A stretch of 64,000 nucleotides of DNA from Tubulanus polymorphus (Eukaryota; Animalia; Nemertea). The notes beneath the pieces were generated by a model. That model did no database searches. It was not told where the DNA came from and worked only from the letters and a program-made list of their open reading frames with translations. This document shows positions 1 through 39,392 of this stretch, piece by piece. The DNA lies in contig NC_134036.1 of NCBI RefSeq assembly GCF_964204645.1, positions 9,589,859 through 9,653,858 of the forward strand, read 5' to 3'. The stretch's first letter is position 1. Each line of letters begins with the position of its first letter. Position numbers and translations under genes: made by a program.

Positions 1-338
1 GCTGGCCCATTTCGCTTCCACCTCTACACTGACTATTGATATTCAAGTTGCTTAATTTGGATTTATGGTGAAATTCATAGATAATAACATTTTGATTTTA
101 CTATATTTACAGATTTACTACAATACAAGTTTTTAATCAGTCAATGTGGAATTATCTTTACAGGATTTTCTTAACGGTGAGTGTTTGATGCACACCTGCC
201 TTAAACCAATATTCCAAAATAAGCAACTGAAATTATCCCCTGGCCAGTGTAGCGGGCGGGAGAGATTTAAACAGAAGGAATGCTGGCCCATTTCGCTTCC
301 ACCTCTACACTGACTATTGATATTCAAGTTGCTTAATT
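1..338. repeat. Direct duplication: 1-57 identical to 282-338 (281-bp period), downstream of the RAG1-like transposase ORF
   Basis: gctggcccatttcgcttccacc...gttgcttaatt occurs at both positions; the first copy is cut by the window edge. Confidence 0.85.
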
Positions 339-451
339 GCGTATTCACGGTTTCATAACTACTATCTATATACTAATCAAGGATTTCAATTCATATACCA
401 TTTTCATTTACTGTATGAAAATTGGTTTTTAATTGTTGTATTTTGGTAAAT

Positions 452-1112
452 CTATAATTTTGCAATTTTCTTGCAGATTTTACAAACTCTAGCTTCATTG
501 GTTTTTTTATAGAAACCTCCGCATTGACATTTTCTTTTTATAGCATCGATCTTCAGGGTTTTAGTTGTATACAATCCTTGATTGATGAATAGTAGTTTGG
601 TTCTGAAGATGTTGTTTCGTATTGTGCAATAAATCCGTGCATCTCTGTTTACACTTGCATGTTTGCACTCTAGGCCCTGTTCGCTAAACAGGCCTAGAGA
701 GCCCCATAATCTAACAAATCTAGGTACATGAAACAGAAGTATGTGGAGCTTGGGTGTGATGTTAGTTTGGGGGAAGGTTTTAGGGAACCATGATCCAAAT
801 GTATTGCAAAGATAATCTAACTGATCAATTTCCTGAGGGGTAAGCATCCGGTTGGCTGTATATAAGCTGTATAAATGATGGAATTTCTCAAACAGAGAAT
901 AGAATTTATGTTCCTCCTCTGGGTGCCCGGCAAGAACTTTGCATAATTTCTGAGGGTTGTTTACATCCGACCTTTGATCTATATACAGTAATTTGTGGAT
1001 ATGATTTCCTACAAAGGAATTCGAATGATATGCCTGTTTATCGATTCCTATTTCTTTAAGTATTTCATTCAGGCGTTTCTGCAGTGGACCCATCTTAGCG
1101 TTGACTCTTTCG
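452..1112 (-). CDS. C-terminal part of RAG1/Transib/Chapaev-like DDE transposase (split by LTR retrotransposon)
   Basis: TPKLHILLFHV (cf. RAG1 H937/H942 Zn ligands), GLFSEQGLE (cf. RAG1 E962 region), C-terminal CxC...CxxC; in frame with 7147-9287 once the LTR element and one TSD are removed. Confidence 0.85.
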
Positions 1113-1117
1113 AATAC

Positions 1118-1334
1118 TGTCGGGAATTGTTATATGTCAGTTACCAGTAACGCACTCCCCTCAGTTCATGTAACCCCGCCTATGTAAGCCCCGCATGAAC
1201 TTATGCTGTAGCGAGTAGATAAATAAATCAGAGTTTACTTAGACACCAAACATATTGGTCGTTGTTCACCTCTCCGGCGGTCTTGCTTATTTTACTCAAA
1301 CCTGGACCATTTAATGTGGCAATCATAGCCCACA
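1118..1334 (+). repeat. 5' LTR (217 bp)
   Basis: TGTCGGG...GCCCACA, no differences from the 3' LTR seen by eye; contains AATAAA. Confidence 0.95.
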
Positions 1335-1337
1335 TTT

Positions 1338-1355
1338 TGGTGCCGTGACCAGGAT
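1338..1355 (+). promoter_or_regulatory. Primer-binding site complementary to the tRNA-His 3' end
   Basis: TGGTGCCGTGACCAGGAT is the reverse complement of invertebrate-type tRNA-His ...ATCCTGGTCACGGCA-CCA; 3 nt after the LTR. Confidence 0.9.
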
Positions 1356-1410
1356 ATACAAGCAGTAAATTCAGAAACTCAGCCAAGATGCCGTCGAAAG
1401 AAGAGATATA

Positions 1411-4400
1411 ATGCGAAATGCGCAAATTCGACAGATGACGAAACTTTTTGATCAGGCGAGGGATTTACTTCATTCGGAAAGTGACGAAAGCCTAGACAAA
1501 TTGTCTGGCGTCATAACTAGAATACGTACAAAATTGGAAGTTATCGCAGGATATGATTCGGAACTGATTGCGAACGCAGAGTTAGGGAAACTCGAAGACC
1601 TCGTATGTGAAACCGATGATTATATGAACGAAATAAACATCGAACTATCAACCTTCATCGGATACCTCGAACGGAAAAAGAATCAAATCGAACCGACAAC
1701 GCGCATGAAATCCGAGCAACAAAAAACTGCGAAAAGACCGATCCAGTTGCCGAAGTTATCTTTGCCAACATTCGATGGCGATATTCTGAAATGGCAAACG
1801 TTCTTCGATGGGTTTTTCTCGGCAGTTGATAGTGATGAGAACTTAACGAATATCCAAAAGTTCCAATATCTGTCCGCACAGCTAAAGGGCGACGCAGCAA
1901 AAACGATCGAAAACCTGAGTTTAACAAACGAAAATTATAATCAAGCTTTGGAACTTTTGTTAAACCGGTACGGGACACCACACAAAATTGTGGCCGCATA
2001 CATGAAAGCGTTGTGGGAGCTTTCACCACCGAGTGATCGCGACAACTCACTACGGAATTTCTATGACTCTCTGGAATCTTATATTCGTGGATTAAATTCA
2101 CTCGGAAAATCCGAAGAATCGTACGGAGATCTGTTAGTACCCATCATAATGGAAAAACTACCGAGCGGAACTAAACAACAGATTACCAGAGACCACGGTA
2201 ACAATGCTTGGAGCCTGACTGATCTAAGAAAGTCACTCCTTAAAGAAATTGAGGCCTTCGAGGCTAGTATCGAAAGCCTTACGATAGAGGATGATTTTCC
2301 CACCAACTCGCCGACCGTGGGAGCGTTCGCAGTTACGGCGAAAAACAGACATAATTTTTCACGGGAAAACGATCGAAAATGTGCGTTCTGCAAAAAGATC
2401 AATCACGTTGCGGTGGACTGTAAAACGTTTCCAGATGCTGAAAAACGCAGAGAAATTGTTGCTAGGGATAATTTATGCTTTAATTGTCTCTCGAGCGGTC
2501 ACAAATCGACGAAATGCTTATCGAAAAACAGATGCAGAGTTACAAACTGTGGCAAAAAGCATCACACATCAGTTCATTTAGATGCAAATTCAACCACACC
2601 TGTGGCCGCAAAATCAACCGATGAGAAAGCTGACAGGGATTGACATCAGTATCTGGGCGCCGCCGATGGAACAGTGTTATTAAAAACAGCTATCGCGAAC
2701 GCAAAAAGTCGCGAAGGCGTAACGACTAACGTAAACATCTTGTTCGACGAGGGCGCTCAGCGGAGTTTTATTACTCAATGAACAGCCGAAAGATTATATA
2801 TAAACAGTGAAGAAACCGAAACTATATCGATCAACACATTTGGCGCGAAACAATCAAGTGCGCGGTCACTGATTGTTGCGAACTTTACACTATGTTCTGA
2901 TGAAACCGACATACCGATAACGGCGTTAATTGTTCCACAAATTGCGTCGACAATGCGAAACCAAACCGGCAGATCTATCAAAGATTTACCGTATCTGACA
3001 GGTTTGAAATTAGCGCATCCGTTTTCTACCGAATCACACTTCGAAATCGACATTTTAATCGGTGCCGATTTCTATTGGTCAGTGGTCGGTAACCACACAA
3101 TCCGCGGAAATGGACCCACGGCAGTATCTTCGAAATTAGGGTATCTTCTCTCTGGACCGTTTAGTGATTGCGATCCAATAAATACTGCACGAGTTTACAA
3201 CGTGGATGTTACGTCACATCGTTCGGAGGAAGTCAACCTCCAAAAATTCTGGGATCTCGAATCCATAGGCGTAACTGATGCAACAGATGCGGCTTCAAAA
3301 GAATTCAATCTACTCGACTACTGTCAATCAAGCCTGACGACATCCGACACGGGACGGTATACTGCGAAGTTGCCGTGGAAGAGTGGACACGCCCCCCTTC
3401 CGACAAATTACTATGTTACTCGAAACATAACACAATCGATGATTCGTCGGCTATCGCCGCAAATTCGAAATGTTTACCACAACATTATCATGGATCAATT
3501 ATCGCGAGACTTCATCGAAGAAGTCACAGATGATGACCGAAACATAGGTCATTATTTACCGCATCGCGCGGTCAAGAAGGAATCGTCAACAACCCCTATC
3601 CGTATCGTCTATAACGCGTCTTTATCGACCGCGGGAAACCCTAGTTTAAATGATTGTTTGGAGACCGGTCCGACGCTGCTGAATGACCTCGGTTCAATCC
3701 TGATCAGATTCAGGTTGCATAAATTCGGATTGTCGGCGGATATCGAAAAGGCGTTTCTTCAAGTTGGTCTGCACGATGATGATCGCGAGTATACGAAATT
3801 TCTATGGTTGACTGATCCTAAGAATCCAGAAAGTGAACTCAAAACCTATCGCTTCAAGGTTATATTGTTCGGCGTGGTGAGTTCACCCTTTATATTGAAT
3901 GCTACTGTTCGTTTTCATCTAAATAATTATAATAACCATGTATCACGTGACTTAGTTAAAAATATATATGTCGACAACGCGATTAGTGGATGTGAATCTG
4001 AGAGCGATCTCATGAAATACTATACGAATATCAATAGCATAATGAAAAACGGCGGATTTAAACTTCAGTCTTATGCTTCTAACTCTTCGTTACTAAAGGC
4101 CAAAGCAGATTCCGATAATTTATCGGACGAGAAAACTATTGTTTCTACGCTCGGACTCCAATGGGATACGGTGAATGATACGCTGTCATTCAAAAACAAA
4201 CAAGCGTTCGCCAATCCTGACTTGATTACCAAACGCGAAATCGTTAAGGCTGTCTCGAGCCTTTATGACCCGTTAGGATACGTCTCGCCTGTCCATATTA
4301 AGTCGAAGATGTTCGTACAGCAGTTGTGGACGGAAGGTTATGAGTGGGACGAAACCCTACCCGAGCGCGTAGTCGAATCGTGGATCTCGTTGATAACGGA

Positions 4401-6667
4401 ATTGCGTGAAATTAGCGAAATACGCGTTGATCGACGCTACTCGAAATCGGAAGCGAAATCGGAAGCTAAGTACGAATTGCACACTTTCTGCGATGCGAGC
4501 CAATTGGCATACGGCGCTTGCGTCTATCTAAAACGTGGAGATGGTACTCGTCATGTCTAAATCGCGTGTGGCACCTGTTAAAAAACATACGATACCGCAG
4601 TTAGAATTAATGGCCGCGTTGATTGGTGCTAAATTAACAGATTACGTTCGAAACAGTCTGATTACTGAAATAGTCATAACAAAGTGCGTGCTCTGGTCAG
4701 ATAGCCAGATTATGTTACACTGGATCAACTCCGAGAAAAAGCTTCCCGTCTTCGTAGCTAATCGCGTGCGTCAAATTAAATCGGTGACAACTATCGGTCG
4801 CTATAAATATTGTCCGACGAGTGACAATCCGGCTGATATGTTAAGCAGAGGAATATCGTGCGAACAAATTACGCGATGCACGCTCTGGTGGAATGGCCCT
4901 AGCTGGCTTAGCAACGGTAATTATCCCACCTGCGACACGATCGATCGAGCAGTTTTGCTCATAACCGAAATGGACGAGGACAAACAGCCTGACGAAAAAA
5001 TCTGCGAAAACAACGAATTCGGAATATGTAACGTAATAGATCAGAACGATTTCACTTCGTTAACAAGGCTATTACGCGTAACCGCGCTAGTTCGACGATT
5101 TATTAAAAAGTTAAGACGCGAAAACCATGAATCGGATGAAATAACTGCTAACGAAATAGCAGAATGCGAAGATCTATGGAACAAAGGTGTTCAATCGAGT
5201 TACTTCAATGACGTGAAAGTTAGTTTAGAACATAAATCTAAGAAAAGGCCATCACTTGTAAAGAAACTTCGTTTGTTTTTAGAAGATGATATCATTCGTG
5301 TTGGAGGCCGTCTCCATAACGCGCCCATCGGATACGATGCAAAGTTTCCGATATTGTTACCTCATTGTAGATATAGTGAATTAATCGTACTGGATTCCCA
5401 TAATAAGGTCAAACACCTCGGTACAGAATCTACTATAACCGTAGTCCGACAAAAGTATTGGATTACTCGTGTTCGTCAAGTGGCTCGGAAGTTGTTGAGA
5501 AAATGCGTCATATGCAAATATATCACCGGTAAACCGTACTCGTTACCAAACTGCGCTCCGTTACAATCTTCGCGTTTGAAAGAGGCTCCACCCTTCACCG
5601 TCTGTGGTTTAGATTTCACCGGTGCACTACATCTTCGGTCGAAATCCGGGGAGGAGTCACTCGCGTATATATGCTTGTTTACTTGCGCGAACACGCGTGC
5701 CATCCATCTGGAAGTGGTAACGGACATGACTACGTCAACATTCCTACACGCGTTGAGGAGAATGGCTGCCAGACGTTCGTTACCGCAGAAAATAATATCG
5801 GACAACCAATCAACCTTTATTGCGAGTAACAATGCTATCAAAAAGATATACGAATCGATCGAAACCCGAAAGTACTTCAGCCTACACCGATCAGAGTGGG
5901 TCATGATAACTCGTCGAGCCCCCTGGTTTGGTGGATTTTACGAAAGGCTAGTTGGAATAACAAAAACCGCGATCAAAAAAGTTCTGGGGCGTGCGCGAAT
6001 ATCCCTGCTGGAATTGATTACGATCGTATCAGAGACTGAACAAGCTGTAAATAATCGCCCGATATCGTACTGTTCATCTGATGTGGACGACCCAGAACCT
6101 TTAACCCCGTCACATTTCCTTCACGGTCGCGTTCTCACGAGTTTACCGCATCTGTTCGTAAGTTACGATGAACTGACCGACCCGACGCTTGGAAATATAC
6201 CGTCAGAATTTGAAAAACGTTCGGTGCGAATCGGTTCATTAAAACAACATCTGTGGAAACGTTGGGCTGAGGAATACGTAACAGCCCTACGCGAAAGACA
6301 CATCCAATTTAAAAGTCGCGGATTAACTGGAAATACCATCAGAAAGGGTGATGTCGTGTTAGTACACGACGACAATCATAATTCGCGTCTGAAATGGAAA
6401 CTAGCACTGGTCGAGGAACTCGTTCCGGGGAACGACGGCTTAGTTAGAACCGCTAAGATCAAAATTTCGAATGGCAGAACTAATCGACCAATTAGCAAAC
6501 TCTACCCTCTTGAAGTGCGCGCCGCAGATCCCTCGAACACGTGCAAACCGGACTCAAACGTAAATTCTGCACCTGTCACACGTCATTCGACGAGAAAGGC
6601 AGCTGCCGAGGCTAGAAATAACATCAGTAGATGGGCTAACGTGCTGTCTGATACATGTCGTAGTTAA
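1411..6667 (+). pseudogene. BEL/Pao gag-pol polyprotein (DUF1759-type gag, three Zn knuckles, aspartic protease, RT, RNase H, integrase) with two nonsense codons and one frameshift
   Basis: LPKLSLPTFDG; CAFC/CFNC/CGKKHH knuckles; LFDEGAQRSFI protease; ADIEKAF and YVDN RT; FCDAS RNase H; GLDFTG, SDNQSTF, GGFYER integrase. In-frame TGA at 2641-2643 and 2779-2781, frameshift near 4545. Confidence 0.93.
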
Positions 6668-6922
6668 TTAATTGATAACCGCTCAGGTCAACGCTAGGTC
6701 ACTCGGACCTAAACAACAAACACAACGCAATGTAGTAGACTTTATAATCTTAGTTTTAGAATTAATTTCAATTATACACATCTTTTTTAGTTGTCAGTAG
6801 TTCCTTATCTGACTATCATAAATTTATAACAATATACATGCATCATTTATTCGAATATCGATATTATTTAGTTGTAGTAACATTTTTCTTAATTACATCT
6901 ATCTAGTAATTTTCTGTCGCCC

Positions 6923-6929
6923 GGGAGAA
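6923..6929 (+). promoter_or_regulatory. Short polypurine tract
   Basis: GGGAGAA abuts the 3' LTR. Confidence 0.7.
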
Positions 6930-7146
6930 TGTCGGGAATTGTTATATGTCAGTTACCAGTAACGCACTCCCCTCAGTTCATGTAACCCCGCCTATGTAAG
7001 CCCCGCATGAACTTATGCTGTAGCGAGTAGATAAATAAATCAGAGTTTACTTAGACACCAAACATATTGGTCGTTGTTCACCTCTCCGGCGGTCTTGCTT
7101 ATTTTACTCAAACCTGGACCATTTAATGTGGCAATCATAGCCCACA
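6930..7146 (+). repeat. 3' LTR (217 bp)
   Basis: Direct repeat of 1118-1334, followed by the TSD AATAC. Confidence 0.95.
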
Positions 7147-9287
7147 AATACTTTGTTGAGTAGAGTTTGGGCTTCACCTATTTGTGATTTTGTGCTATTT
7201 TGTAGAGTTTTTAAATCATTGATGTATTTCACACTTTGTTTGATTATAGAATCTGCTGATGGTTTCTTACCAGTGACACATTCGACACAAATGAAATTAT
7301 CTACATTATCGATACACTGACTGTGATATGGAGCCTCACATTCTTTACAGTAAGTATACTGATGAGGCTTTGCCTGTTCAATGGTTCGAATAATACATAT
7401 AGGTGCCGTGCAGCTAATTGGTGTTCTTTTTTTCTTCTTGGCAGTCTTTAACATGTCTAATACATCATTACTACTGTTGATTTCTAATTTCAATGACTCT
7501 AATTCAGCGGTTAATCTTGAAAGATTTTTTGAGAGATCCTGCCATTCGGCGTTGAGATCAGGATCTCGATCTCCTAACGAAACTCTATCTATGTCTTTAC
7601 ATTTGTCTTCCAACATGTTGAAAAAGAAAAGACCGAGGCCTAGGGATATATGTAGTGGAGGGGGGACAACATGATCCAAGTCATCAGGCATTATAAGCAT
7701 TGGTGCGCATACATTTTCAGTTTCTGGTCCAGGCTGAATTTCATTCAGCCTGCCTAGATTGTCTTTGTACTGTGCAATTGTTCTCTCTGTGAACTTGCAG
7801 GATTCCAAGTTATGTGGCAAACTATTCTTTTTCCTGATGTCCTCTAGTTTGACAAGGCACCACACACAAGGATACGTAGCAGTAGATCCTTGGTGACCTA
7901 GGCACTGACATAGAAAATGATAGTCGCCGATAATGAAAAATCGAACTATTACTTTCTTTTCTTCATTTTCAATCTCTACATCGATGTAATTTGTTGCGGA
8001 CATTTCATGTCTGAAATACCCAAATATGCTCTCCATATTTACGGTAGAGTCAGTTCCTTCGAAATATCCTAACATTTCAGCTTCGTCGGGATTATTACCC
8101 ACCCTGCTGTTAACGATAGAATAAATCATCTTTGTACTCCCACCCCCTTTGTCAATTCCAATCTTAACCCAGATTTCCCCGTGAAATGCTTCTGAATCAA
8201 TCAATTTGCCAGATCTTATTAACCGTGACACAGTCCTTTCAAGCTGATGTTTAACATTGGATATTGTTGCATATGGGGAAATTTTTATCTCGTGGGTGCG
8301 ACTATTCACCTCTAGTGGTTTCTCTCCGACCGATATGTAAGGAGCCAATTTCCTGCCACGCATCTCAATCTCGGCTCTAATTTTGGCTATTGCAGGAAAT
8401 ATATTAATTTTGTAGTATCTTAGAACCTGTATTAACTGAAGCAAACGAGTCATCGTCAAGCGTAATCTTAATTTTAGTTCGACCGCTTCTTCTGGTGTGA
8501 GGGTTTTTGAAACAGCATTGAATCGAGCAATTTTCAATGCATTGTTAGCGAGATTTTGATATTGATTCAGAAATTTAGCTAAAGTAAATGAACTATTTTC
8601 TATTGTAGGTTTTTTCGCTGATGTATAATCTAAAATGGTTTTCAATTTTGCTGCCCTCTTCTCTACTGTTTGTTGACTGGCTGAAAGTGATGGTACAATT
8701 GGTTCGTCTAATTTAGTGAAAGTGGATGTGTGCGCGGATGATATAAGTCGACCTTTAAAGATTGGATCATTGATGGTATAGCTATCAGGAAGCTGAACAA
8801 TATTGGTTGCGCCAAAAACAGAATCCATGTGCGACTTTATGCTATTAAGACTTTTGTTTTCGGCCTGAACAATTTCGATTTTCTTGTCTTTTTCGAGTAA
8901 TATGTTGTTTTTTTCCATCAATTGTTGGTTCAATTGAACGATTGTATTGTTCAACTGTTCAATTTCTAATTCCATTTTAACTAGCTGACCATCTCTTTGT
9001 TTTAGTTCTTTCTGTAATAGGGATATGTGTAGATTAACTTTTCCTTCTTCTACGTCTGTTTGAGATTCCTGATGAACTTTCTGAACTAATGGGGTAAATT
9101 GAAGGGGTGTTTTAAATGAATTCAATGGAACAGTGGGATGGATAGGACTTGATGTTGCCAGATGTAGAATATGTGATGAATCTGATGAAAATGATGATAA
9201 ACTTTCTGCATCTGATGATGTATTCGAGTACGAGTGGGCGGCAGAATTTTGGAGATCTTCACTACTGTTCATGTTAGTTGCTTTCAT
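7147..9287 (-). CDS. N-terminal and central part of RAG1/Transib/Chapaev-like transposase with coiled coil and internal PHD finger
   Basis: KIGIDKGG (first Asp, 8151-8153), FFIIGDY..LGHQG..ATYPCVWC (second Asp 7923-7925 plus CxxC, cf. RAG1 D708/C727/C730), PPPLHISLG, C4-H-C3 finger at 7278-7412. Confidence 0.85.
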
Positions 9288-9428
9288 GTTTCCTTAATCA
9301 AATCAAAATGAAAACATAAATAAAACATTTAAATAAAAAAGGTATTGCTACTTGCAAGTATTAAGAAATGAAATAAAGTGCATTTTGCATCTCGCATATT
9401 AATAAAGCAATGTATTGAAGTTCATTAA

Positions 9429-9709
9429 AGCGTGATCACACAAAGTTATTTAGACTGGTCTAAATTTGGCCCGGTCCAACTTGGACTGGACCAAAGCGTG
9501 ATGAGTTTAAAACTATTGAATTGAACAATTTTGATGATTGCAGTATATTATATAATATAATAAACTGCAATCATCACAATTGTTCAAATATAAAACTGCA
9601 AGTCATTACAATCTGGAACCAATTTAGCAACGCGTATGTGAACGCACACTCAGTGATTTGATCCAATCCAAACTAAACCGGTCGAACTAGTGGTAGTGTG
9701 AATCCAGCT
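9429..9709. mobile_element. Degenerate PIF/Harbinger-like MITE
   Basis: Imperfect TIRs agcgtgatcacac / gtgtgaatccagct. Confidence 0.4.
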
Positions 9710-9751
9710 TTGAATTTACACAAAATATGTGATCATTTAATCTTTAATATA

Positions 9752-9895
9752 CAGTTAAACTCGCTTCAGTCATCATCATATATGTCACATAACAAATGTT
9801 ATCTATATTTTAGTCCCAATTTCTATAGGACTAAAATTTAGTAAGTCTTCATCTGGATTACATCATGATCATCCTGACTTAAGAGAGTTTCACTG
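9752..9895. mobile_element. Tc1/pogo-like MITE
   Basis: TA-cagttaaactcgcttcagtca ... tgacttaagagagtttcactg imperfect TIRs. Confidence 0.5.
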
Positions 9896-10565
9896 TTTAG
9901 ATTTTTATTAGTACATGAAACAACCATTGTTAGTGTAACAAATTAACTTTTCAGAACTTTTGAACTTCACGAAATGTATTGCCATTAATATATTTATTGA
10001 TGACACAAACTGATACTTGATATGTTGGCAAAATTGTTTTAATATAATAAATGACTTCATTTCATGTCGGTGAGAGAATAAATTATATAATTTACTACTA
10101 TAAAACTTACCCTCCAGTGTGACTTCAATTTTTGGTGGTTTATCAACACAAGGTGGCAATATTCTGAGAAAATCACAGAACTGGAACTCGGTCTAACACA
10201 AAAAAATCCTCTCGGCAGTCCGCAATAGTCACGTCATGGGAAAATCCATTGTAACGTCATTGGAAAAATGCTTTTTGGAATTTACAGTCTTACATGTATT
10301 TAAGTCTTCCTTTGATTATCGGGCCTGTTTATTTTATTAAAGAACTTCACAATTTATTTTTGAGAGAGTATACTTTTTGGTTGGAGATAATCAAAGGAAG
10401 ACTTAAATATGAGTTAACTATACACGATTGATTTTAAAACTGATGAAAATGGAAAAAAGAATCACGTAATAATACATTAGAGCTTTTATTGATAACACTT
10501 AATTGAAATAAGAACACTAACATTAACAGTAAATTCATATGAAAATAGGATCATAGAATACTTAC

Positions 10566-10686
10566 TTGATTCTATCATCTTTTTGATTTTGTTTTTCTTT
10601 CCCTTTTTATTCCCTCCAAAATAAAGTTTTCTTTTTCCTCTCACACCCTTTGACTCGAGACTCCTGTTTACATTTTTATCCGCCAT
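10566..10686 (-). CDS. Putative first coding exon of the RAG1-like transposase (basic, NLS-like)
   Basis: MADKNVNRSLESKGVRGKRKLYFGGNKKGKKNKIKKMIES then A|GTAAGT donor; phase 1 joins in frame to an AG acceptor at 9294-9293. Confidence 0.45.
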
Positions 10687-11153
10687 CGTGAACATAGATA
10701 ATTTAGATCAATACTGCTGATTTCCGTTCCTGGAAGTATCATCAGCCGTTATAAAGCAAAGTAGATAATTTCAATTATTTGGTTTAGAGATAAAGGTTTA
10801 ACTTACACTTACATTACCCGTAAGATTTTATAGGCCTACACTGGTTCAGCAGCTCACGTCGCCGATCAAAACAACTTGGGATACCTGGACCACTGTGCGT
10901 TCCGATCTAGAATATAATTAAACATCAGTATAAAAAACAACCTAAGAATTAGATGTACTGCAAACTGAGAATATCTGATTTTTAAATGCAGTCTGATCTT
11001 CCTAGTACCAGTATGCGGGTTTTCTAGACCCCCCCCCCATTTGTTAAAAGTTCCACTAAAATGAAATCAGCAACCCCCCCCCTAATTCCACCCACCCTAC
11101 GGCCTGCTGGATTAGGAAGGCCTATGATAATTAGTATTTAAACAGCTAATTTG

Positions 11154-13544
11154 CGGTTCCTGAACTTCGCTGAAAAAGCTGAAACACTGAAAACCTGAAA
11201 CGCTGAAATAAAAACGCTGAAATTTCAGGGAATTTCCGAAAAACGCCGAAATTTCAGGGAATTCCCGAAAAACGCTGAAATCGTGCTAGGTACCGACAAT
11301 ACACGTTTTGAAATGTTTTCCGGGCCGGTGTCCGCTGACGAGTCCTGAACCGTGTTTTATGCTCTACCTTCGGTAACAGAGACATGCCCTAAGGTCGTCG
11401 TCATGATCGACTTGATCGATTGCGGATTGCGTGGATTGTTAGATGTGTTTTTTGCCATAGTTTTATGTGCATATACCGGTACGATCTAACAATGAAGTTA
11501 TCACTGCATCTGAATAAATTCTTAATCACAGTAATATTAATTCACAATATTTTTTCTTATGTTTGGTGATTTCTTGCAATTTATCATTGCCAAGTCTCAT
11601 ACAAGTAGTAGCTGAATGAAAGTACAGTTGAAAGTACAGTTGGGTTATCAGGCTGAACCTGATAACCCAAATTAAGTGCTAGCATGGAACTAATGATTAT
11701 TTTGATTCTATTTTCGGTGTCATTGAAATTCGTTAATAAAGGTTCAACCGTCATAGTATACTGTACTTAGCATTGCTACAATTGGGTGCCATATTTCTAC
11801 AATTTCTACAAGGAGGAAGGAATCTTTAAGTGTCTTTGTTCCCGGGTAGGGTACGGGGTAAAACCTGGTTTACTTTCTCTTTCGACTTGCCGGAGACTAC
11901 TATCTGCAATGTATTGCATGCTTTGATGTGTCTGGCCTATAGGAGTCGAACGATATTTTCTTCCCATACACAGGCATGGCTTTAGTGTAGATGAAGGCTA
12001 GGCACTGCACATTGTGGATTGACTGGAACTCTTAACTCACAAAATTAAACGAGTCAACAAGAAAGATCCAATAATTGGACATTTGTCTAACTATATTATT
12101 TAACAGCTTGAAATAATACATAACACATTCTGCAAGAGTATACAAAGGAAATCAGTTCTTACATTATATCAGAATCAATAGTTCGCTTAACTAGAATTCT
12201 GGTTCCATTGCTTCATATTCTAATGAAATCCACTAGTATACCTTAGAATATCGCTTAGCTTAAGACTAAAAATTTGGTACCAGGAAACAGGGAAGAAAAG
12301 TGGGTGTACTTTCCATCCGCAATTGACTTATTTCTCTCTGGTTGAATCAAGTTATAATTGAAATAGCATTCGAATAGCCATTTTATTTTTAAAAATTGTG
12401 TCGTTCAGCTATCCTGCTGCAAATTTCGCAGTTGAAGTTTACTGGTGCCATCTGATTTCTCAGTATCTCAAAAAATTTGCACATTCTAAGCCTGAATCTA
12501 AAAATAAAAAAAGGTGCATTTTAGTCGGATATAAAAGAATAGTGGCTAATACACCCTGGACTATATAGCCTATGGGGTGGGCCTAGTTTGAAAGCACTGA
12601 GGTCCGAGAGAACAGCACTTAGTAAATAAATACTGAAATTAAACTTACAAAACACCCAGTACTTGAGATGATGTACTTGACAAGAAGTGTCACCAGCTAA
12701 GCAAATCAACTTTGTCTATGACTCCTCCTTTTATAGATTCAGTAGTAGTCTAAAAATAAGAATCGGTACATTTTTCTAACAGTTGGTATGTCATTTCTTC
12801 AAAAAAACTAATTATTATCACGCCACAGCAAATAAATTATTCACAGTTGTTGAATGGTTAGCCCGATTTAGATTAATTGGTTGACGCTAATCAGTATGAC
12901 CCATACGTAGGGGCCTACTGCATGCCATTGGCGTCAATCCATTCCATTCCATTCCACAGTGAATTAAAAAGAAATTTAGTTAGATCCCTTTTGTCTAAAA
13001 GCTGCATCATTTATATAACTAGCTGTCAAATTTAATTTACCTCCTTCAGAGAATACCATAGTGACATAGTCCGTCGCCCATCAACGTGTTGACAAAAGAA
13101 AAGTTGCTCCATGTTTTATACATGAACGTTCAAATAAGATATTTTGCGTCTTGCAGGGAATATTGAGCTTAGTGTTTAAGTTGGCTTGCACGGTTTGTGA
13201 ATGGGTTTTCCTCATTATGCTGCCTGTATGCATTAAAAATCCGGATTTCAAGCGAATTAATTTGTCCAACAAGTGGCCCTCTAAAAGTATACTCCACACA
13301 TACTGTCCATGCGTGTCTCTGTAACCGAAGGTAGAGACTAAAACACGGTTCAGGACTCGGCAGCGGACACCGGCCCGGAAAATATTTCAGAACGTGTATT
13401 GTTGGTACCTAGCACGATTTCAGCGTTTTTCGGGAATTCCCTGAAATTTCGGCGTTTTTCGGAAATTCCCTGAAATTTCAGCGTTTTTATTTCAGCGTTT
13501 CAGCGTTTCAGTGATTCAGCTTTTTCAGCGAAGTTCAGGAACCG
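11154..13544. mobile_element. Non-autonomous Mutator/Foldback-like DNA transposon, about 230-bp TIRs
   Basis: CGGTTCCTGAAC... / ...GTTCAGGAACCG TIRs with internal GCTGAAA repeats; perfect 9-bp TSD GCTAATTTG (11145-11153, 13545-13553); no long ORF. Confidence 0.9.
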
Positions 13545-14270
13545 GCTAATTTGGTACCGGGCCGGGGGTAGGCCTAAGGGCGTATTAGGCCTACTCGATC
13601 CACATCAGGACCTACTTTGTTTTGGTATTGAAATTTACATTATTAGGCCTAATGGACTCAAATTTCATGTCATATGATAGTTCAAATAATAACTATCCGG
13701 ATATTCTGAAACGATAACATCGCTTTTTAGCATGTGGGCTGAGGCCTAATCCGAGTGGCATCTTTTTGTAGAAAATCCCGGACGCGGATTGCAAAAGTGG
13801 TCAGTCAAAATTTATCGTAATATAGACGTATCGTATATCAAATTAAACGTGGGAAAATTTTCTTCTTCGAGATGTTTCGTTTTATTTTGTATATTTGATC
13901 ACTGAGAAGAAATTAGTTTATTACCAGCGGCTTCCGCATGCGTGGAAAAATCCAGAATATCCCAAGTTTTTGCGCCTGTATAGCGCGAAAACTAGATCAC
14001 TCAGCGAAAAAGTAAAAACTTGACGAAGTTGAGATGGGAACTAAATTTATTTCCAAGGCACGAGGGGATGATATACGTCATCATTGAACCAGCAATAAGG
14101 AAACCCGTCCACAACCTCCGTGCTATCCTTTAACCATTAGCTCGATCACGTGATAGCGGCTCAGCTATTTTTAGCGAGAGGTCGAATCCCGCCAATCAAT
14201 ACAATTGTTGCGGGTCGCCGAGCGTTACTCGTTTTCGCGTGTTCGCGTACGGTCGTGCTGGAACATCGCT

Positions 14271-16185
14271 TCAGTCTTGGTGAGGCTTGTAGTCAGTCCA
14301 AATGCTTTTGCTGCTGCAGTGAACCTGAAGCTGGATTTCTTCCGGGGTGTGAGCTGACAAAGCGCAGTCATCAACGAACAGTAGATCGCGAATGATCATC
14401 TCGAACACCTTTCGTTTAGCAGAGAACCGACGGAGATTAAACAGTTTGCCATCGGTTCGAACTTGCAGGAAGACACCCGTGTCCAGGTCTTTAAAGGCAT
14501 GGTGTAACATCAGTGAGAAGACAATCCCAAACAGGGTTGGGGCTAGGACACAGCCCTGTTTGGTACCGTTTCTTATTGGTTGAGTCACGGAAGGTTTTCC
14601 AGGCATCTTCAATTGTGTTAGATGCTTCTATGTCTTCAAGGGATGCGATATTGTTCTGAAGGGCTGTGCGCTTTTCTTCATCCTTCAGGACCTCTATACC
14701 TAACTTTCTTGCTGCAGTTTTACCCTGGTGACGCTTGGGTTTCTCTGTCCGTGGGAGTTTGACATTGCTTCTAATGAGAAGGTGATCGGACCAACAACCA
14801 CTGCCGCGCAGCGCTCGGGTTATGCAAACATCCTTTAGGTCTTTTTGGCGTGTGATGATGTGGTCAATCAGGTGCCAGTGTTTAGACCTTTGGTGCATTC
14901 AGGACGCTTTGTGTTTTTTTTTCAGGGAGCTCAAAGTAAGTATTCGTCATTGCAAGACTATGCTGAGAGCAGGTGGAGAGTAGGAGTGTACCATTGGTGT
15001 TCGAGTGGCCGATTCCATGATGGCCCAGTACCTTAGGTCATGTGGCATGATCACGTCCAACTCATGCATTGAAGTCGCCCATGAGAAATAATCTGTGGTT
15101 TTCAGGGGTTACCGTAATTATTCTGTTTAGCCCATCGTAGAACTCCTCTTTGGTGTCCTCGCTGTGCATCATTGTGGGTGCATATGCGCTCAGAACGGTC
15201 ATGTTATGCGAGCCCGACTTTATGCGTAGTACCAATAGACGTTCAGATATCCCTTCTGGGGCTATCTCTAGGTCTTTCATCAAGTCGGTTCTGATGGCAA
15301 AGCCAACTCCAGCATGCCTTGGGGTACCCCCTGGTAGACCTTTCCAGTAGAAAGTGTAGCCAGAATCTGACAGCTTGCCTTCCCCACTAAATCTCGTTTC
15401 ACTTAGTGCTGCGATGTCGATACTATACTTTTCTAGTGTTTTAGCAATGATCGCTGTTCTGCGTTCTAACTGACGATCATTTTCGAGTAGTGTTCTGACA
15501 TTCCAAGATGCGAAATATAGTTTCTTCTGACCGTTTCTACCGCATGATTGGATAACTAACCAGGCGCGGCTGCCTGATAAGTTTAGGTGTGACAGGCGAT
15601 GTTTGAGACATGTTTTCTAGTCTCTTCCTCATTCAAGGAGAGCAGCGTTAATCCTAAAGAGGCCTGCTCTGACATCTGGACAGGATACGAATCTGTCACG
15701 ATTCTTGGCTGAGCGACCATCCTATCCAGATCGCCTTTCGTGTAGAGTCTTGCCTTGTAGCTTCCAGCAGTATTCCCACCTGCTACCGTCAGTATTTCTC
15801 CATCGCCGAAGGACTTGTGAAAAAAAGCTTTGAGAAGCTGTTGACCTGCACGTATTGTAAGTGGGTGTTGTTTGTGCAGAGCAAGACCCACTCTCACGTC
15901 TGCAGCAGTCATGGTCCATCTGGTGCCACTGGGACCACAAGCTGGAGGCTGGAGCAGATGCAGATCAATTGCCTTGTAGCGCTTAAGGATTTGATCTATC
16001 CTGGTTTTGAGGTCGGTGATGTCCTTCACTTAGGAAGGCTGCCATTATCCTTCCTGCCCAGGTTTGAAATCAGTGTTTTCCGTCACCTAGGAAGGCTGCC
16101 ATTATCCAAGGCTGCGACCCCTCCCTGCCCTGGGAAGATGCCTTGCAGGGCTTATGGTCCCTTTCCTGAACAGGTTTTTGAATAA
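14271..16185 (-). mobile_element. RTE-clade (BovB-like) LINE remnant: 5' leader, APE endonuclease, internal deletion, RT fragment, 3' truncated
   Basis: FASWNVRTL, DIAALSETR, GVGFAI, SAYAPT, GDFNA, WHLIDHI, WSDH (APE); GTKQGCVLAPTLF, RTDGKLFNLRR, LFVDDCAL (RTE RT); EN joined to RT near 14580. Confidence 0.92.
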
Positions 16186-29271: not shown

Positions 29272-31770
29272 TCATGCTAAATTAACAAGCGGCGAATACA
29301 GCAACACATAGCATGATTCATCAATGATAACCTTGGGTAGTGGCCAAGGGAATTTCAGCTCATCTGCGCATAACATAAGTATATGTTCGCCAGGACGAAC
29401 TTCGTATGCATTGCGAGATAGACTGTAATGTTGAATATCCATCTTACAAACACAAAGATACTTGGTATCTTTGTAAACTAACACATGGACGATTCTGACA
29501 AAACACGGTAATTCTTCTTCAAAGCCAAAAAGGAGAATTTCATTTGGCATGTAACAATGTCCATTTGCTAGAACCCTTGGGCTCACCATGGCCCTATTTA
29601 TTGTGAAATCTGGATCCTTTGCCATAAGGTATGTTCTCATAATATCTACATGATTATGTACATTGATATCTAACATAGAACCCATGCAGACAGTATCGTG
29701 TGATTTGAGAAAATTGCTACTAAAGCTGTAAGTGAGCCACCGCTGATGTTTGACAGCCATTGATTTGGGGATATTTTTGAAGTTTTTCCATCGAAGTTGC
29801 TTGAAGTAGGCATGTTTAGCCTCGAACCGCATACACCAATGGTTTCGTAAGGGACCAAACATAGCCATTTGTGATGGCAAATGCAGCAAATAGTGCATTT
29901 TAGGAGTAATGTTAATAGCTGGGTATGAGTCTCGAAATCTTTGATTATGCTGAGTAACAAGAATCTCCAAAAATGTCATGGTATCCTCCGATATTACTGG
30001 AGATAAACAAAGAATTGTAATCTTCTGTAACCGCAGCCAATTTTTCCAGTACTCATTGTGACTAGGTATGTCACTAATAAAAGGTAAAATAAACATAAGA
30101 ATTTTCATTTCCTGTGCACTTTGACCAAGCTTTCCACTAGTTTGATTGTTAAGGAGCTTCTTGTCAATTGCTTGAGGCTTGTCTTTTTGATCTAAAAAGC
30201 TATATTCAAAGTTTTCAATAGCACTGTTTAATGCACTTAGGGAAATAAGGTTATCATCTATAAGCCTTGAAAGAAGCAATTTCGTTTCCATTGGGCAAAC
30301 ACCCTCTAATAGATGCATCACATCCATTACCAAGCATTCCGTGACTCTGAACCCTTTAACATCTAAAAGAGTAGATCTAGAGTTTATACCATACTCTATA
30401 CTCATTGCTTTCCTTTCCTGCCCATCAAGTTCCTCAAGATAATCACACCTTGCTAGGTGTTCTTCTTCATCTCTTTTTTCTGAATCATCAGCATGGAAAC
30501 AAGTATTTAGATTTTCACTTTTGATTTCACATATTCTACAAGGCTTTTTGGCACCACCCACACCCTCTTTAAAACCTCCTATCTCATTTGAGGCTGGAGT
30601 GTCTGCTGAAAAGCAAATTAAAGCCCCATTAGTTCGGTATGGTCCAGTTTTTAGAAGTAATGTGTGCCCATTATATAATACATTTATATCACGCACAAAA
30701 TTGGCTAGAAGTTTCTTAAAAGTTTTGTCAAATTTGTTTATGTCTTTCCTCTTTGCCGCTGCAATTAACATTATATTTGGTAATTTGGAACGCATCTTTG
30801 GGGGAATATTGCACAGCATTAGATAAAAAAGAACGATTTTGTGCTATTTAGTCCCAATGGGATTAACAATTTCTATGTCATCATCGTATGCAAGAAAAGA
30901 CAATGTCTTTCGATTTGCAATAAAAACAGGATGATTTTTCACAAATTTTCCATCACACATATCATGTAAATATTCATTTGCACTATCATACGGACCAGAA
31001 TCTACACATTGCTTTACATCTGACTGATTGAGTAAATTTGTAAGGGTCTCGAGTAATGGTATATAATATCCTATTGCAGGTACTCTCTTATACCGAAACT
31101 TCCCTTTGAATTTAATTTTTCTTAATTGATAACCTAAAACAATTCCAATTGGTTTTACTATATCGAAAACCTCAGAAAAGTATTTATCCTGGTTATGAAT
31201 CGATCTTAAACCTTCAAAAATGTTTTCTCTATCAGCAAAACATCCACTGACAATATCTTTTTCCTCATCAGTCAAATTAGGAAGTTGATTAAAAAGGTTT
31301 TCTTTTATAATGAAATTCATATCCTGCAATAATTCTTCCACATTTTCAATAACCCTTAGGGTAGCTTGATGGCTCAATTGAGCACCTTCACGTAAACTGA
31401 GCAAAAACTGCCCAATACGCTTTTTGAAATTAGCATCCTGCTCAACGTCAGCATTATAATTGTCTATTTCCATCCCCTCATCTTCATTGTGCATACCAGC
31501 ATCATTAACAGATTCCAGTTCATTCACATTATCTTGTTCTACTCTATGGTGCCTGCTTACATGAGTACGATAGGATGAAAAATTAGCATATGTGGCCCCA
31601 CAGAATTGACAGTTTATTCTAAACTTTGGAGCATTTTTGTGTTTCGCCAACAAATGTTTTTGGAATTTATAAGGATCCCTGTTAAAGTAATTGCAGATGC
31701 TACAATGCCACAGCATTTTATGGAATGTTAAACTTACCACTTTAGGCTTTGTTTCTAATCTGATATTCAC
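29272..31770 (-). pseudogene. EnSpm/CACTA transposase with two N-terminal C2H2 fingers; single nonsense codon
   Basis: YDDDIEIVNPIG, SADTPASNEIGGFKE, CRIC, DVMHLLEG, TPKMHYLLH, WCMRFEAKH; TAG at 30844-30846 separates two same-frame ORFs (NPIGTK*HKIVLFY). Confidence 0.9.
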
Positions 31771-32640
31771 ATCTCAAGTGTGTAATAAAGTTTATCAAAA
31801 CACATAGATCTGTATATGACCACACACGTATCACATTATGGCTATTAGGACACAAATAGTCAGTTACATCAAGAGATAAATATGCACAAAACTCTAAGGC
31901 TTTTATAAAATCGTTTGAGCGTCTGAAGTGAATTTCTGCACCCATTGGTAACTACGTAGAAGTTTATTGTTTTTAAACATAAGAGCAAAGCCCTAAGACC
32001 TGAAATATCAATGATGATTATTAAATTTTGACACTGAATTCTCACTTTGAGCATGCTTGATACAAGAAATTTGGAGTCCACCGTCTAAACGAATGGATTT
32101 TGAGCATACAAGTATCCTAAAAACCACTTTCAAATCTTAAAACAAACAACTGCAAAGCTCATTTCATGGCAATTTAGGCAATGTTGAATACTTTATTCAA
32201 TCTGCTATAGACCTATTATACTGTAAACGTGAAGAAATGGGGTTAGGGTTGGTTCAAAATATGATTCAATTACATTTCACAAGGGTTCTCAGCTGGCCAC
32301 GATGGTTCAGAGCAGCGTATGCCATTTCTTAGATATTATATCCTTTAGGTTCGAATCCGATTTTGATATTTACCATTACCAACAGTTCATGTTTCAACAT
32401 TACCCAACTTGCCATTTCATGTAGGTAGGCGCATTTGTTTAAAATCAGTTTGTTAAACTCAAATTGTTTCGGTTTAGGCCTAGGCCTAGGAAAATAGATG
32501 GGTTTTTTAGACTGCACAGTTTAACTGTGGTTGTATTAAAAAGACTGAGGAGGTGGTAGGCCTATGACTATGTGTTCATAAGTATTAATAAATATTATAA
32601 TAAATATTCCCAAAAATCAATGTAAGGCCTATAGAAGTAA

Positions 32641-37094: not shown

Positions 37095-37370
37095 AACTGA
37101 ATATATTTCATACAATATACTGAAGAAGAACTGACACTGAAAATATTGATACTGAATGAACTGAAAAAAATGAAATGAACTGAAAGTACTGATACTGAAA
37201 ATACTGAAACTGAATACGATATTATATACTGACACTGAAATTACTGACACTAGATACACTGAAAATACTGACACCAAATACACTGAAAATATTGACACTA
37301 AGTCCACTGAAAATACTGACACTAAGTACACTGAAAATACTGATTATACTCATTAAAGTACTGACACATT
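37095..37370. repeat. ACTGA-rich minisatellite (about 24-bp unit) upstream of the Helentron ORF
   Basis: Repeated cactgaaaatactgacactaagta variants. Confidence 0.8.
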
Positions 37371-37380
37371 TTCTTTCAAA

Positions 37381-39385
37381 ATGGTATTCAAAAAGAAAAA
37401 GAAAAGTTATGCACAGAAAAGAAGACAAAGAATAGAGTCATACCGAGCTGATCACCCAATTCATGTCTTTGGATCAATGAAGCAAAGTTCTGAAGTTTTT
37501 ATGTATGCAGCTGGCAAACAATGTGTTTGTGTATCATTTGTTTTTTTGGTTAAGGCATCTATAGTCAATCCTAGCAGTTTAACGTCTGTATGTATAGATA
37601 CTATACTATATGAAGCTTCAGAATTATATAATGATTTACAGAAGGTGCCATTATCTCATGAATATCTTCTGTGTAATGACTTGCCATTGGTATACAAATT
37701 TCAAAACATTGTATTTGAAAGAGTTCTCAAAGATCCATTTTTTGGGTCTCCAGGTAGTGAAAATGTATTTCCCTGCATGACATTAGAAAATGCTGTTCAC
37801 GTATGTTTTGAAGAAAACGAATTTGCTTTCTTCACAATAGGTCCTAATTTTTCCAGCAACGAGTTAGCCAATTGGAGTAATATTGCGAGTTACACCTCAG
37901 CATTAGTTTCAACGGCTAATGGTTTTTACATATTTGATTCTCATGCAAGAAGCAAGCAAGGTACCCCGGATCCTTTTGGTAAAGCTGTTATTTTTTACCT
38001 GCCTAATATCATGGCTGTGATCACCTATCTCAGAAGATTGGTTGACTCCCTTGGTTTATTTTTGGGTTTCTTTGAAATAACTCCAGTCAATTTTCTTAGA
38101 AATTATCAGACACCCTCATCTAAGGATGACTCTTCTCTGAATGACTGTAATGAACAATCACTCTTGAATGCTTTCTCTTCATACCTTAACAACCAAATGG
38201 AACAAAGACATGCCAAAAGGATATCACAGCAAAAGCTACGTTCTAATCAAACAATATAGAGATATTGAAAAAGTTAGCGACTGTGCTCAAAAGAAAAATA
38301 AGCGTTCTGATGAAGAATATAGGAATAAAGAAAGACTGAGTAACAACCAACAAAGAAAGAGAAAACGTAGCAATGAAGAATATACAGATAAAGAGAGACT
38401 GAATGACAAACGACAAAGAAAGAGAAAACGTACCAATGAAGAATATAGAGATAAAGAGAGACTGAATGACAAACAACAAAGAAAAGGAAAACGTAGCAAT
38501 GAAGAATATAGAGATAAAGAGAGACTGAATGACAAACGACAAAGAAAGAGAAAACGTACCAATGAAGAATATAGAGATAAAGAGAGACTGAATGACAAAC
38601 GACAAAGAAAAGGAAAACGTACCAATGAAGAATATAGAGATAAAGAGAGACTGAATGACAAACAACAAAGAAAAGGAAAACGTACCAATGAAGAATATAG
38701 AGATAAAGAAAGACTGAATGACAAAGAACAAAGGAAAAATAAACGTACTGATGAAGAATATAGAGAAAAAGAAAGACTGCAACAGAAACACCTAGAAAAA
38801 GAACATACTGACGAATACCTTATTACTAAATTCCATGATATCATTTCTAAAGGACCTCTTTATATTTGTTGTTCATGTGAACAGCTTTTTTATAGACATA
38901 GTACAGTTACTATGCAAAGCCTCTATAGTGACCACAACTTGGATCACATCAAACAGAATTGCAAAAATATACCTAGTGTCAACAATCGTGAATGGATTTG
39001 CCTAACCTGTGCCAAGTATTTAAAGAAGCATGAAATTGCTCCTTGCTCATCAGTGAATGGCGTCTCATTTAGTGAGCTCCCTGCCATCCTCAAAAACTTA
39101 ACACCTTTAGAATTGAGATTGCTTTCACCAAGATTGCCATTCATGCGTATTCTACAAGCGTCTTTTGGAAAGCAATTTAAAATGAGAGGTAACATAGTCA
39201 ATGTTCCTTCTGATGTTGTCCAAACTGTTTCATTATTACCAAGAATGCAGCATGATGATGCTACAATTAAGGTGAATTTAAAACGTAAACTGCAATATGC
39301 TCATGCAGTTGCAACAGAAAATGTTAGACCTGAACTTGTCAGAAAAGCTGCTCAGTGGCTCACTACCAATGGATGTTTATTTAAC
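37381..39385 (+). pseudogene. 5' part of a Helitron/Helentron RepHel ORF (herpes-tegument/C76-like cysteine protease, basic repeats, DUF6570-like region), truncated before Rep
   Basis: AGKQCVC and YIFDSHAR; GPLYICCSCEQLFY; LSPRLPFM..GNIVNVP..LKRKLQY; 1-nt insertion near 38250; homologous to 56302-57850. Confidence 0.85.
38300..38780 (+). repeat. Coding 60-bp tandem repeat (about 8 units, RTNEEYRDKERLNDKRQRKRK-like)
   Basis: Directly visible period-60 repeat. Confidence 0.95.
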
Positions 39386-39392
39386 GAATTGA

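Follow-up and report, generated by a model that had tools for sequence, protein, structure and literature searches.

A Chapaev-type transposase of Tubulanus polymorphus with a PHD-type finger on a predicted helical stalk

Background

DUF1280 proteins are Chapaev transposases, which form one clade with RAG1 (Majorek et al., PMC3985635), and the C(2)C and H(3-4)H motifs are marks of the CMC/CMCT clade (PMC12730594, PMC4079192). The C. elegans element Chapaev-2 is a piRNA target (PMC7917558). A layout of Chapaevs with Chapa and RING domains was described by Kapitonov and Koonin (PMC4411706 and its supplement 5); Transib is described in the same work as a core-only transposase that lacks added domains and makes 5-bp target duplications. 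We analysed a stretch of 64,000 nt from Tubulanus polymorphus, called here the window (GCF_964204645.1, NC_134036.1, 9,589,859-9,653,858, forward strand). It contains a transposase open reading frame (ORF) that is split by a long terminal repeat (LTR) retrotransposon, and whose product, by its sequence, is a Chapaev-type transposase carrying a stalk and a PHD-type finger in its core. In the RAG system the PHD comes from RAG2, a separate chain, whereas the window protein carries its own finger. Among Mutator-type transposases, Rehavkus and others are known to have a PHD within the transposase polypeptide (PMC6446971, PMC1702500). These belong, however, to another superfamily, the PHD is C-terminal in PMC1702500, and no stalk or RAG1-type core is described in the parts of these sources that were covered.

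The target choice of DNA transposons in chromatin is largely open, and Chapaevs, although close cousins of RAG1, have been little studied mechanistically. Finger-bearing and finger-less sister clades, with the aromatic cage of the finger intact in some members and lost in others, offer a natural comparison for asking whether a PHD redirects a RAG-fold enzyme.

Results and discussion

Family of the transposase

The transposase is encoded on the minus strand, in two parts:

7152-9287, minus strand: 5' part, residues 1-712 (serine/threonine-rich start, N-terminal coiled coil, RNase H-like core, stalk and finger)
452-1117, minus strand: 3' part, residues 713-933 and stop (stalk end, GNH motif, H837/H842, E858/E862)

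Excision of the LTR element and of one copy of its target-site duplication, AATAC, yields a stop-free ORF of 933 aa running from an ATG at 9287 to a stop at 452-454. This uninterrupted ORF had been noted in a preliminary description of the locus; it was confirmed, and the unsplit allele was also found in reads and contigs (see below). A pyrimidine tract followed by TAAG lies directly before the ATG (9290-9345, minus strand) and, as read from the sequence, resembles a splice acceptor. The figure of 933 aa is therefore an ORF length, and the protein length is unproven. An upstream exon is possible, given this tract and the longer N-terminus of full-length relatives.

A profile search for relatives gave 3560 cluster representatives at E <= 0.001, of which the best 150 were considered. 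The comparison set consisted of 160 proteins. Those that reach from the first Asp as far as the Glu, 120 in number, make, with the window protein, an alignment of 121 rows; the 40 shorter ones were omitted. The following residues could be placed:

8151-8153, minus strand: D379, first catalytic Asp (IGIDKGG), in 113 of 121 rows
7923-7925, minus strand: D455, second catalytic Asp (GDY), in 116 of 121 rows, aligned with RAG1 'GtgyDEK'
7857-7868, minus strand: C474-x2-C477, first half of the zinc site (CMC/RAG1)
728-745, minus strand: H837-x4-H842, second half of the zinc site
680-682, minus strand: E858, in 120 of 121 rows, conserved on a par with E862
668-670, minus strand: E862, putative catalytic Glu, in 119 of 121 rows, aligned with the Glu of RAG1 'GNES'

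D379, D455, H546, G749, K835, H837, E858, E862 and H865 are each kept in 113 to 121 of the 121 rows. D379, D455, the CxxC and the LH motif are held by the 5' part, and a C-terminal CxC...CxxC by the 3' part. The motifs IGIDKGG, GDY..CxxC, HxxxxH and SEQGLE were all found at the positions given for them earlier.

The 5' part matches the Pfam family DUF1280 (PF06918) with 78.2 bits, the curated cut-off being 25, and the protein has the features of a Chapaev: a DDE triad (D379/D455/E862) and, in the interval from the second D to the E, C474/C477, L545-H546 and H837/H842. It thus has DUF1280, D-D-E, C(2)C, LH and H(4)H in common with the Chapaevs of the CMC/CMCT clade, and D[KH]GG and a helical hairpin in common with the Chapa/RING-bearing sister clade. 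A profile of the finger-bearing group matched this sister clade at E 7.9e-98; the two groups share a helical stretch, and the finger appears as an inserted block midway along it. RAG1 was matched at E 7.7e-13, the two values coming from different programs. The Pfam family of RAG1 was not matched by the window protein and was matched by one of 54 finger-clade members, at E 0.0055. We conclude from these sequence comparisons that the window protein is a Chapaev-type (DUF1280) transposase, far nearer to the Chapa/RING Chapaevs than to RAG1.

It differs from the described Chapaevs in the PHD block at the hairpin tip and in having no Chapa or RING domain in the 933-aa ORF, since there is no Cys before residue 250; an upstream exon would lie outside this ORF. 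In a Pfam scan, RAG1_imp_bd, which we take to cover the Chapa region, was found in 8 of 58 members of the finger-less sister clade and RING in 7 of 58, compared to 0 of 54 finger-clade members for both. The tree legend of Kapitonov and Koonin includes C. elegans, and no C. elegans row is present in the part of their Chapa alignment that was examined (PMC4411706), which fits the existence of nematode Chapaevs without a Chapa domain.

A PHD-type finger in the core

The finger was located as follows:

7278-7412, minus strand: C4HC3 PHD-type finger, C626-C670, with 8 of 8 ligands

The interval is exactly that of the preliminary description, and the ligands (C626-C631-C647-C650-H655-C658-C667-C670) follow the order C4HC3, not C3HC4. 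With a finger profile from which the window protein and the relative P0002 had been left out, the window finger was recovered at E 7.6e-7 among 71 scored proteins, and none of the finger-less relatives among them scored below E 0.27. Pfam PHD was matched by 12 of 54 finger-clade members at E <= 0.01 and RING families by 0 of 54. The best PHD matches of the finger-group profile were BPTF, KDM5B, KMT2D, PHF2, MLL and KDM5A (E 1e-8 to 2e-6); for P0008, an intact relative, the best solved match was the KDM5B PHD (E 5e-4), with WVQCD and W-x-H aligned. When the window finger alone was compared with solved structures, no significant match was obtained (best E 1.0, DPF3). No PHD appeared in the fold-search lists, which were filled by core and hairpin matches; this is not evidence against a PHD fold.

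A RING was considered and rejected, on the ligand order and on the Pfam scan. The ligand order and the profile matches to the PHDs of BPTF, KDM5B, KMT2D and PHF2 bear out the earlier assignment of the finger as a PHD.

Fold and stalk

AlphaFold2 models were obtained for P0008 (predicted local distance difference test, pLDDT, 91; predicted template modelling score, pTM, 0.84) and for residues 250-712 of the window protein (pLDDT 92.9). The P0008 model matched RAG1 with Z 26.9 and a root mean square deviation (rmsd) of 3.6 Å over 433 residues, followed by BbRAG1L (Z 24.8) and HzTransib (Z 24.3), the next unrelated row being at 8.9. The window model matched RAG1 459-822 with Z 15.7 (rmsd 6.2 Å, 287 residues). 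At the sequence level, RAG1 was the top match of the finger-group profile to solved structures, followed by RAG1L and PHD fingers. The window core as a single-sequence query returned nothing below E 0.48 among solved structures, so that RAG1 was reached by the family profile only. A structural match of the core to RAG1/Transib had been set beforehand as a check, and it was found with RAG1 for both models and with BbRAG1L and HzTransib for that of P0008. The earlier view of a RAG1/Transib-type transposase thus holds for the fold and not for the family, which is Chapaev. Overall fold (Z 24-27 for P0008), zinc-site motifs and catalytic order are those of RAG1, RAG1L and Transib; identity with these proteins is 10-15%, and RAG1 has a short N-O loop where the window protein has a finger-bearing stalk of about 150 residues.

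Two long helices flank the finger in the models, between the CxxC and HxxxxH halves of the zinc site, as had been proposed:

7431-7562, minus strand: outgoing helix of the stalk, residues 576-619 (AlphaFold2 helix 327-370 of the model)
7152-7256, minus strand: returning helix of the stalk, residues 678-712, interrupted by the LTR element (AlphaFold2 model)

The full returning helix corresponds to residues 425-466 of the P0008 model. The model of window residues 575-712 matches two-helix hairpins (SMC arm and CHMP4B coiled coils) with an rmsd of 1.4-1.6 Å over 77-82 residues, and the finger is predicted to sit at the tip of this two-helix stalk. With arms of 42-46 residues, the stalk would be some 60-70 Å long at 1.5 Å per residue. 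It likely replaces the N-O loop of the RAG1 ZnH2 region, around residue 822, because the RAG1 alignment stops at 822 and the profile resumes at the following helix. In RAG1, the flank/target-DNA site is lined by loop N-O and helix O (816-832), which also contact the RAG2 PHD in the signal-end complex (PMC11844651). The helical stalk of the preliminary description is therefore predicted by the models, but it is not peculiar to PHD bearers, as finger-less Chapaevs share the hairpin.

Distribution of the finger among relatives

A finger, defined by at least 6 of the 8 ligands, is present in 55 of the 121 full-core rows, the other 66 having at most 2 ligands. The nearest named proteins are from Tubulanus polymorphus itself (36-60% identity), and the finger group includes named proteins of Caenorhabditis, Romanomermis, Hydra, Clytia, Amphiura, Antedon and Tubulanus, that is, of nematodes, cnidarians, echinoderms and ribbon worms. 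The spacing from H546 to G749 is 167-327 residues in finger-bearing rows and 40-171 in finger-less ones, and an insert of at least 85 residues is present in 61 of the 66 finger-less rows. P0006, from the red alga Porphyra, and P0005 have the same core without a stalk (40-54 residues), and a stalk-less core is possibly the ancestral state. Intact members of 911-997 aa, with fingers of the form WIQC...W-V-H, were seen on the metagenome contigs L001-L004.

In a tree built from the core without the insert, the 55 finger rows form a 60-row group together with five finger-less rows placed among them, with a Shimodaira-Hasegawa-like approximate likelihood ratio test (SH-aLRT) value of 78. The window protein lies within a 40-row subgroup (SH-aLRT 95). 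Clusters of 68, 61 and 25 near-identical members in the finger lineage were counted in favor of mobility of the lineage; the largest is that of P0010, from Hydra vulgaris.

Both C(2)C cysteines are kept in 35 of 55 finger-bearing rows, compared to 64 of 66 finger-less ones. One or both are lost in 20 of the 55 (often as S-x-x-D; P0007-P0016 and others), compared to 2 of the 66. To judge by the alignment, some of the finger-bearing lineage seems able to do without the RAG1-type zinc site.

The combination of PHD and DUF1280 is visible in databases. It is auto-annotated as PF00628 plus PF06918 on P0004. A mostly nematode cluster of the Atlas, which bears the name 'putative Zinc finger PHD-type domain-containing protein', has DUF1280 in 51% of its 94 members and a template modelling (TM) score of 0.55 to P0003. 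Nematode DUF1280 proteins named 'Zinc finger PHD-type domain-containing protein' have the same finger in the same place, on a separate sub-branch, and the finger-bearing group includes three named proteins of Caenorhabditis. Full-text searches, whose scope did not extend to Repbase, Repbase Reports and subscription journals, found no paper describing a PHD in a Chapaev core; nor was such a description found in the parts covered of PMC3985635, PMC4411706, PMC4079192, PMC12730594, PMC7917558, PMC7642931, PMC11662393, 10.64898/2026.01.24.700457, 10.1101/2021.09.26.461848 and 10.64898/2026.08.26.747230. The PHD-bearing Chapaev lineage seems undescribed in print. The suggestion that the family might be new stands to that extent, and fails in that the architecture is lineage-wide and already auto-annotated.

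Cage residues and histone reading

In KDM5A PHD3, trimethylated lysine 4 of histone H3 (H3K4me3) is held between two Trp, with R2 in an acidic pocket (PMC9172573), and RAG2 requires Trp453 (PMC10462144). The finger shares C4HC3 and a widely spaced first pair with KDM5A/KDM5B PHD3 and the BPTF PHD, and many relatives also share WVQCD...W-x-H. The window finger differs in its shorter last loop (8 residues) and in its cage: Y644, K648 and P653 take the places of the Trp, Asp and Trp found in KDM5-type readers and in many relatives. The second of these Trp is presumably at the same position as Trp453 of RAG2. Readers of the KDM5A PHD3, BPTF and RAG2 type have a Trp two positions ahead of the zinc-binding His, partnered by an aromatic residue or Met. 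This combination is found in 18 of 55 relatives, but not in the window protein (P653). All three Tubulanus relatives have Pro at this second cage position.

Over the 55 finger rows, Trp occupies the first cage position in 27, the second in 21 and both in 16, the full Trp-Asp-Trp being found in 7. Rows with both Trp occur across both main sub-branches and many branches, at a mean row identity of about 25%. This scatter suggests a cage that was ancestral and has been lost repeatedly. We predict that fingers with both Trp may bind H3K4me3 and bias insertion toward active chromatin, a prediction to which we give slightly less than even credence. In the window copy, H3K4me3 reading has very probably been lost, as judged from the cage positions, and its finger is best described as homologous, retained and cage-less. 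The built-in H3K4me3 reader that had been proposed is consequently plausible for the lineage and doubtful for the window copy, because of the Tyr and Pro at its cage positions.

The preliminary description had taken the window copy itself for a reader, and a non-canonical cage of Y644, Y646 and Y654 would allow this. The first cage position is aromatic in both BPTF and the window copy (Y644), and the pattern Y-x-Y-C...A-P-[YH]-H repeats in Tubulanus relatives at 41-45% identity, so that it is a kept variant and not fresh decay. This finger has, however, Pro in place of the Trp that RAG2 and KDM5A need, two before the His, and Lys in place of the acidic residue, and alone it lacks a significant match among solved PHDs. 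We regard reading by the window copy through such a cage as very improbable.

Possible role of the stalk and finger

The explanation that we consider probable is that of a Chapaev transposase with a RAG1 fold, split here by an LTR element, whose stalk is tipped by a PHD that would read H3K4me3 in relatives with both Trp and would not do so in the window copy. By analogy with RAG1 and Transib, a dimer would cut the element ends and join them to target DNA. A hairpin of about 100-170 residues, pre-existing in finger-less Chapaevs, may have acquired a KDM5-PHD3-like finger at its tip; in the models the stalk would leave the core near RAG1 residue 822, on the target-DNA side, and the finger would reach a nucleosome beside the target. 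A finger with both Trp would bind H3K4me3 there and steer insertion toward active chromatin. The cage would then have been lost in many branches, including that of the window copy, while the zinc ligands stayed, and the window finger likely retains a cage-independent contact, with the H3 N-terminus or another partner. The wider claim, of a large and animal-wide lineage of one-chain RAG1-fold transposases with their own KDM5-type PHD reader, carried on the stalk at the loop where RAG1 is contacted by the RAG2 PHD and guiding insertion to H3K4me3 without RAG2 as an independent solution, is put forward more tentatively and we hold it to be somewhat doubtful. No RAG2-like partner, which in RAG1/RAG1L systems is a convergent gene, was found among the ORFs of the window, which has only 451 bases beyond the transposase stop.

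Alternatively, the finger may target nowhere in the lineage. Stalk and finger would then do another job (clamping of flank DNA, contact within the dimer or with a host protein, or self-inhibition), and the Trp residues would be leftovers of a captured host domain. The zinc ligands are retained while the cage is mostly lost, 61 of the 66 finger-less rows have a stalk, the RAG2 PHD also blocks the target-DNA site (PMC11844651), and the piggyBac cross-brace finger binds DNA, all of which would suit such a role. The joint presence of both Trp on several separate branches in spite of the low identity, and the first rank of H3K4me3-reader PHDs with the family profile, speak against it, and we consider it unlikely.

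Several points nevertheless weigh against the explanation by a lineage of PHD-tipped transposases with H3K4me3 readers among them. The second Trp is missing in 34 of 55 rows, among them all 15 rows of the branch to which the three named Caenorhabditis proteins belong, and H3K4me3 reading therefore cannot be what retains the finger everywhere. The cage calls come from a single alignment in which some rows are visibly shifted (for example, P0018). A single origin of the finger is not proven, with an SH-aLRT of 78 and five rows without a finger inside the group. The position of the loop replaced by the stalk was taken from the end of the structural alignment range, not from inspected coordinates. 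Finally, neither ends nor a target duplication were found for the window element, and read depth indicates one or two close copies.

If the built-in PHD does redirect the enzyme, H3K4me3 guidance of a RAG fold would have arisen twice, the stalk would be a natural arm for attaching targeting domains, and the cage-less variants (window copy, nematodes) would be ready-made controls. Taken by itself, the locus is a modest one, since the gene is near single-copy, is broken in the assembled haplotype and has the finger in its least promising form.

The retrotransposon insertion, copies and element ends

The insertion that splits the transposase ORF consists of the following features:

1118-7146, plus strand: BEL/Pao LTR retrotransposon, 6029 bp, inside the transposase ORF
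1118-1334, plus strand: 5' LTR, 217 nt
6930-7146, plus strand: 3' LTR, 217 nt, identical to the 5' LTR
1113-1117: left copy of the target-site duplication AATAC
7147-7151: right copy of the target-site duplication AATAC
1369-2643, plus strand: gag-like ORF
2782-4560 and 4532-6667, plus strand: pol-like ORFs, in separate frames with stops between

The LTR termini are TG...CA, and the assignment to BEL/Pao is based on the LTR pair, the 5-bp duplication, a DUF1759 gag, a Pao peptidase A17, a reverse transcriptase (RT) and an integrase. The unsplit joint (1112 to 7147) is present in three of the four public runs of the same species that were examined. DNA run X7 has 36 reads across it, with 24 distinct starts, at a local depth of about 40; runs X1 and X2, which are not recorded as DNA or RNA, have one contig each. 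We conclude that the LTR insertion is young and not fixed, being missing from other individuals, and that the 933-aa protein is a real allele. An assembly artefact as the source of the rejoined ORF is ruled out by the presence of the joint in three runs.

In X7, depth over the gene is 31-48, compared to 22-32 over the right flank (about 1.3-2 times), and minor variants extend to about 9335. An X1 contig (8613-10694) passes from the 5' half of the gene into the flank at even depth. There is thus one main copy, perhaps with a second. A more distant family member of the same species matches at 8110-8186 and 7239-7283. Among the best-supported ORF variants, to which the lists are limited, the protein is altered by 4 of 6 that are common, by 1 of 5 that are minor and by 5 of 12 that belong to the distant relative, counts that do not amount to a selection test.

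No terminal repeats were found within positions 1-16000 of the window, the best of 686 CAC/GTG pairs agreeing at 10 of 14 bases. The left end may lie outside the window, given the few bases beyond the stop. The CAC...GTG ends and the 3-4-bp duplication of Chapaevs were not found for the window element, a duplication being readable only beside defined ends. Among 19 metagenome loci, 6 were scanned for inverted repeats and 6 for CAC...GTG ends, with no convincing pair, and two end alignments of these loci gave no boundary. The hexamer CACAGC is present in L002 and L003 near the start of their similarity, the ends not being fixed there. Present mobility of the window element is unproven.

Some of these observations could indicate a domesticated, near single-copy host gene, a reading that would agree with both views of the finger: terminal repeats were not found, the 5' half is continuous with its flank at even depth, the ORF is intact in other individuals, and all catalytic residues are kept. 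Yet the assembled haplotype tolerates an LTR insertion that disrupts the gene, the X7 depth and minor variants point to a second copy, most of the common ORF differences listed alter the protein, the window is dense in other transposons, and the only spliced RNA seen is antisense. Domestication appears quite unlikely in this light.

Antisense transcription

A spliced plus-strand transcript was seen in two runs of one study, its GT..AG joints not being listed in the other runs. Its exons are:

112-176, plus strand: antisense exon, bounded by AG and GTGAGT, with a second copy upstream in a contig of run X5
7250-7349, plus strand: antisense exon over finger codons 647-680
8609-10079, plus strand: last antisense exon, covering the transposase start and ending at AATAAA (10077-10082)

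The three exons contain no frame of more than 65 codons, and the splice donor of the exon over the finger is spelled by the codons of T645-Y646. The contigs carry no strand information, and sense transcription is neither demonstrated nor ruled out by them. The antisense transcript may be a silencing RNA or a host non-coding transcript. Identical 58-nt stretches are present at 1-58 and 282-339, 281 bases apart. A tandem duplication probably continues to the left of the window, because the transcript holds a 64-nt exon twice.

Other elements in the window

The rest of the window contains the following features:

about 9428-9711: small multi-copy element of raised read depth, whose inverted ends are short and which encloses a 33-nt palindrome (9521-9587)
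11154-13544: separate high-copy element with 234-nt inverted ends and an X7 depth above 1000; second copy at 63099-63874
14271-16029, minus strand: broken long interspersed nuclear element (LINE), with endonuclease and RT pieces
29272-31773, minus strand, and 39393-40946, plus strand: ORFs resembling transposases, with motifs of the C(2)C and H-x-x-x-H types
37357-39430, plus strand: Helitron-type element with a Herpes_teg_N-like ORF, an array of 63-nt repeats and DUF6570, interrupted by the ORF at 39393
44799-46319, plus strand: Ser/Arg-rich ORF (GC 54%) built from tandem repeats of 78 and 75 nt
56302-62249, plus strand: Helitron-type element with Helitron_like_N and helicase-like pieces

The two transposase-like ORFs had no Pfam transposase match at E 0.001; we take them to be EnSpm/Mirage-like.

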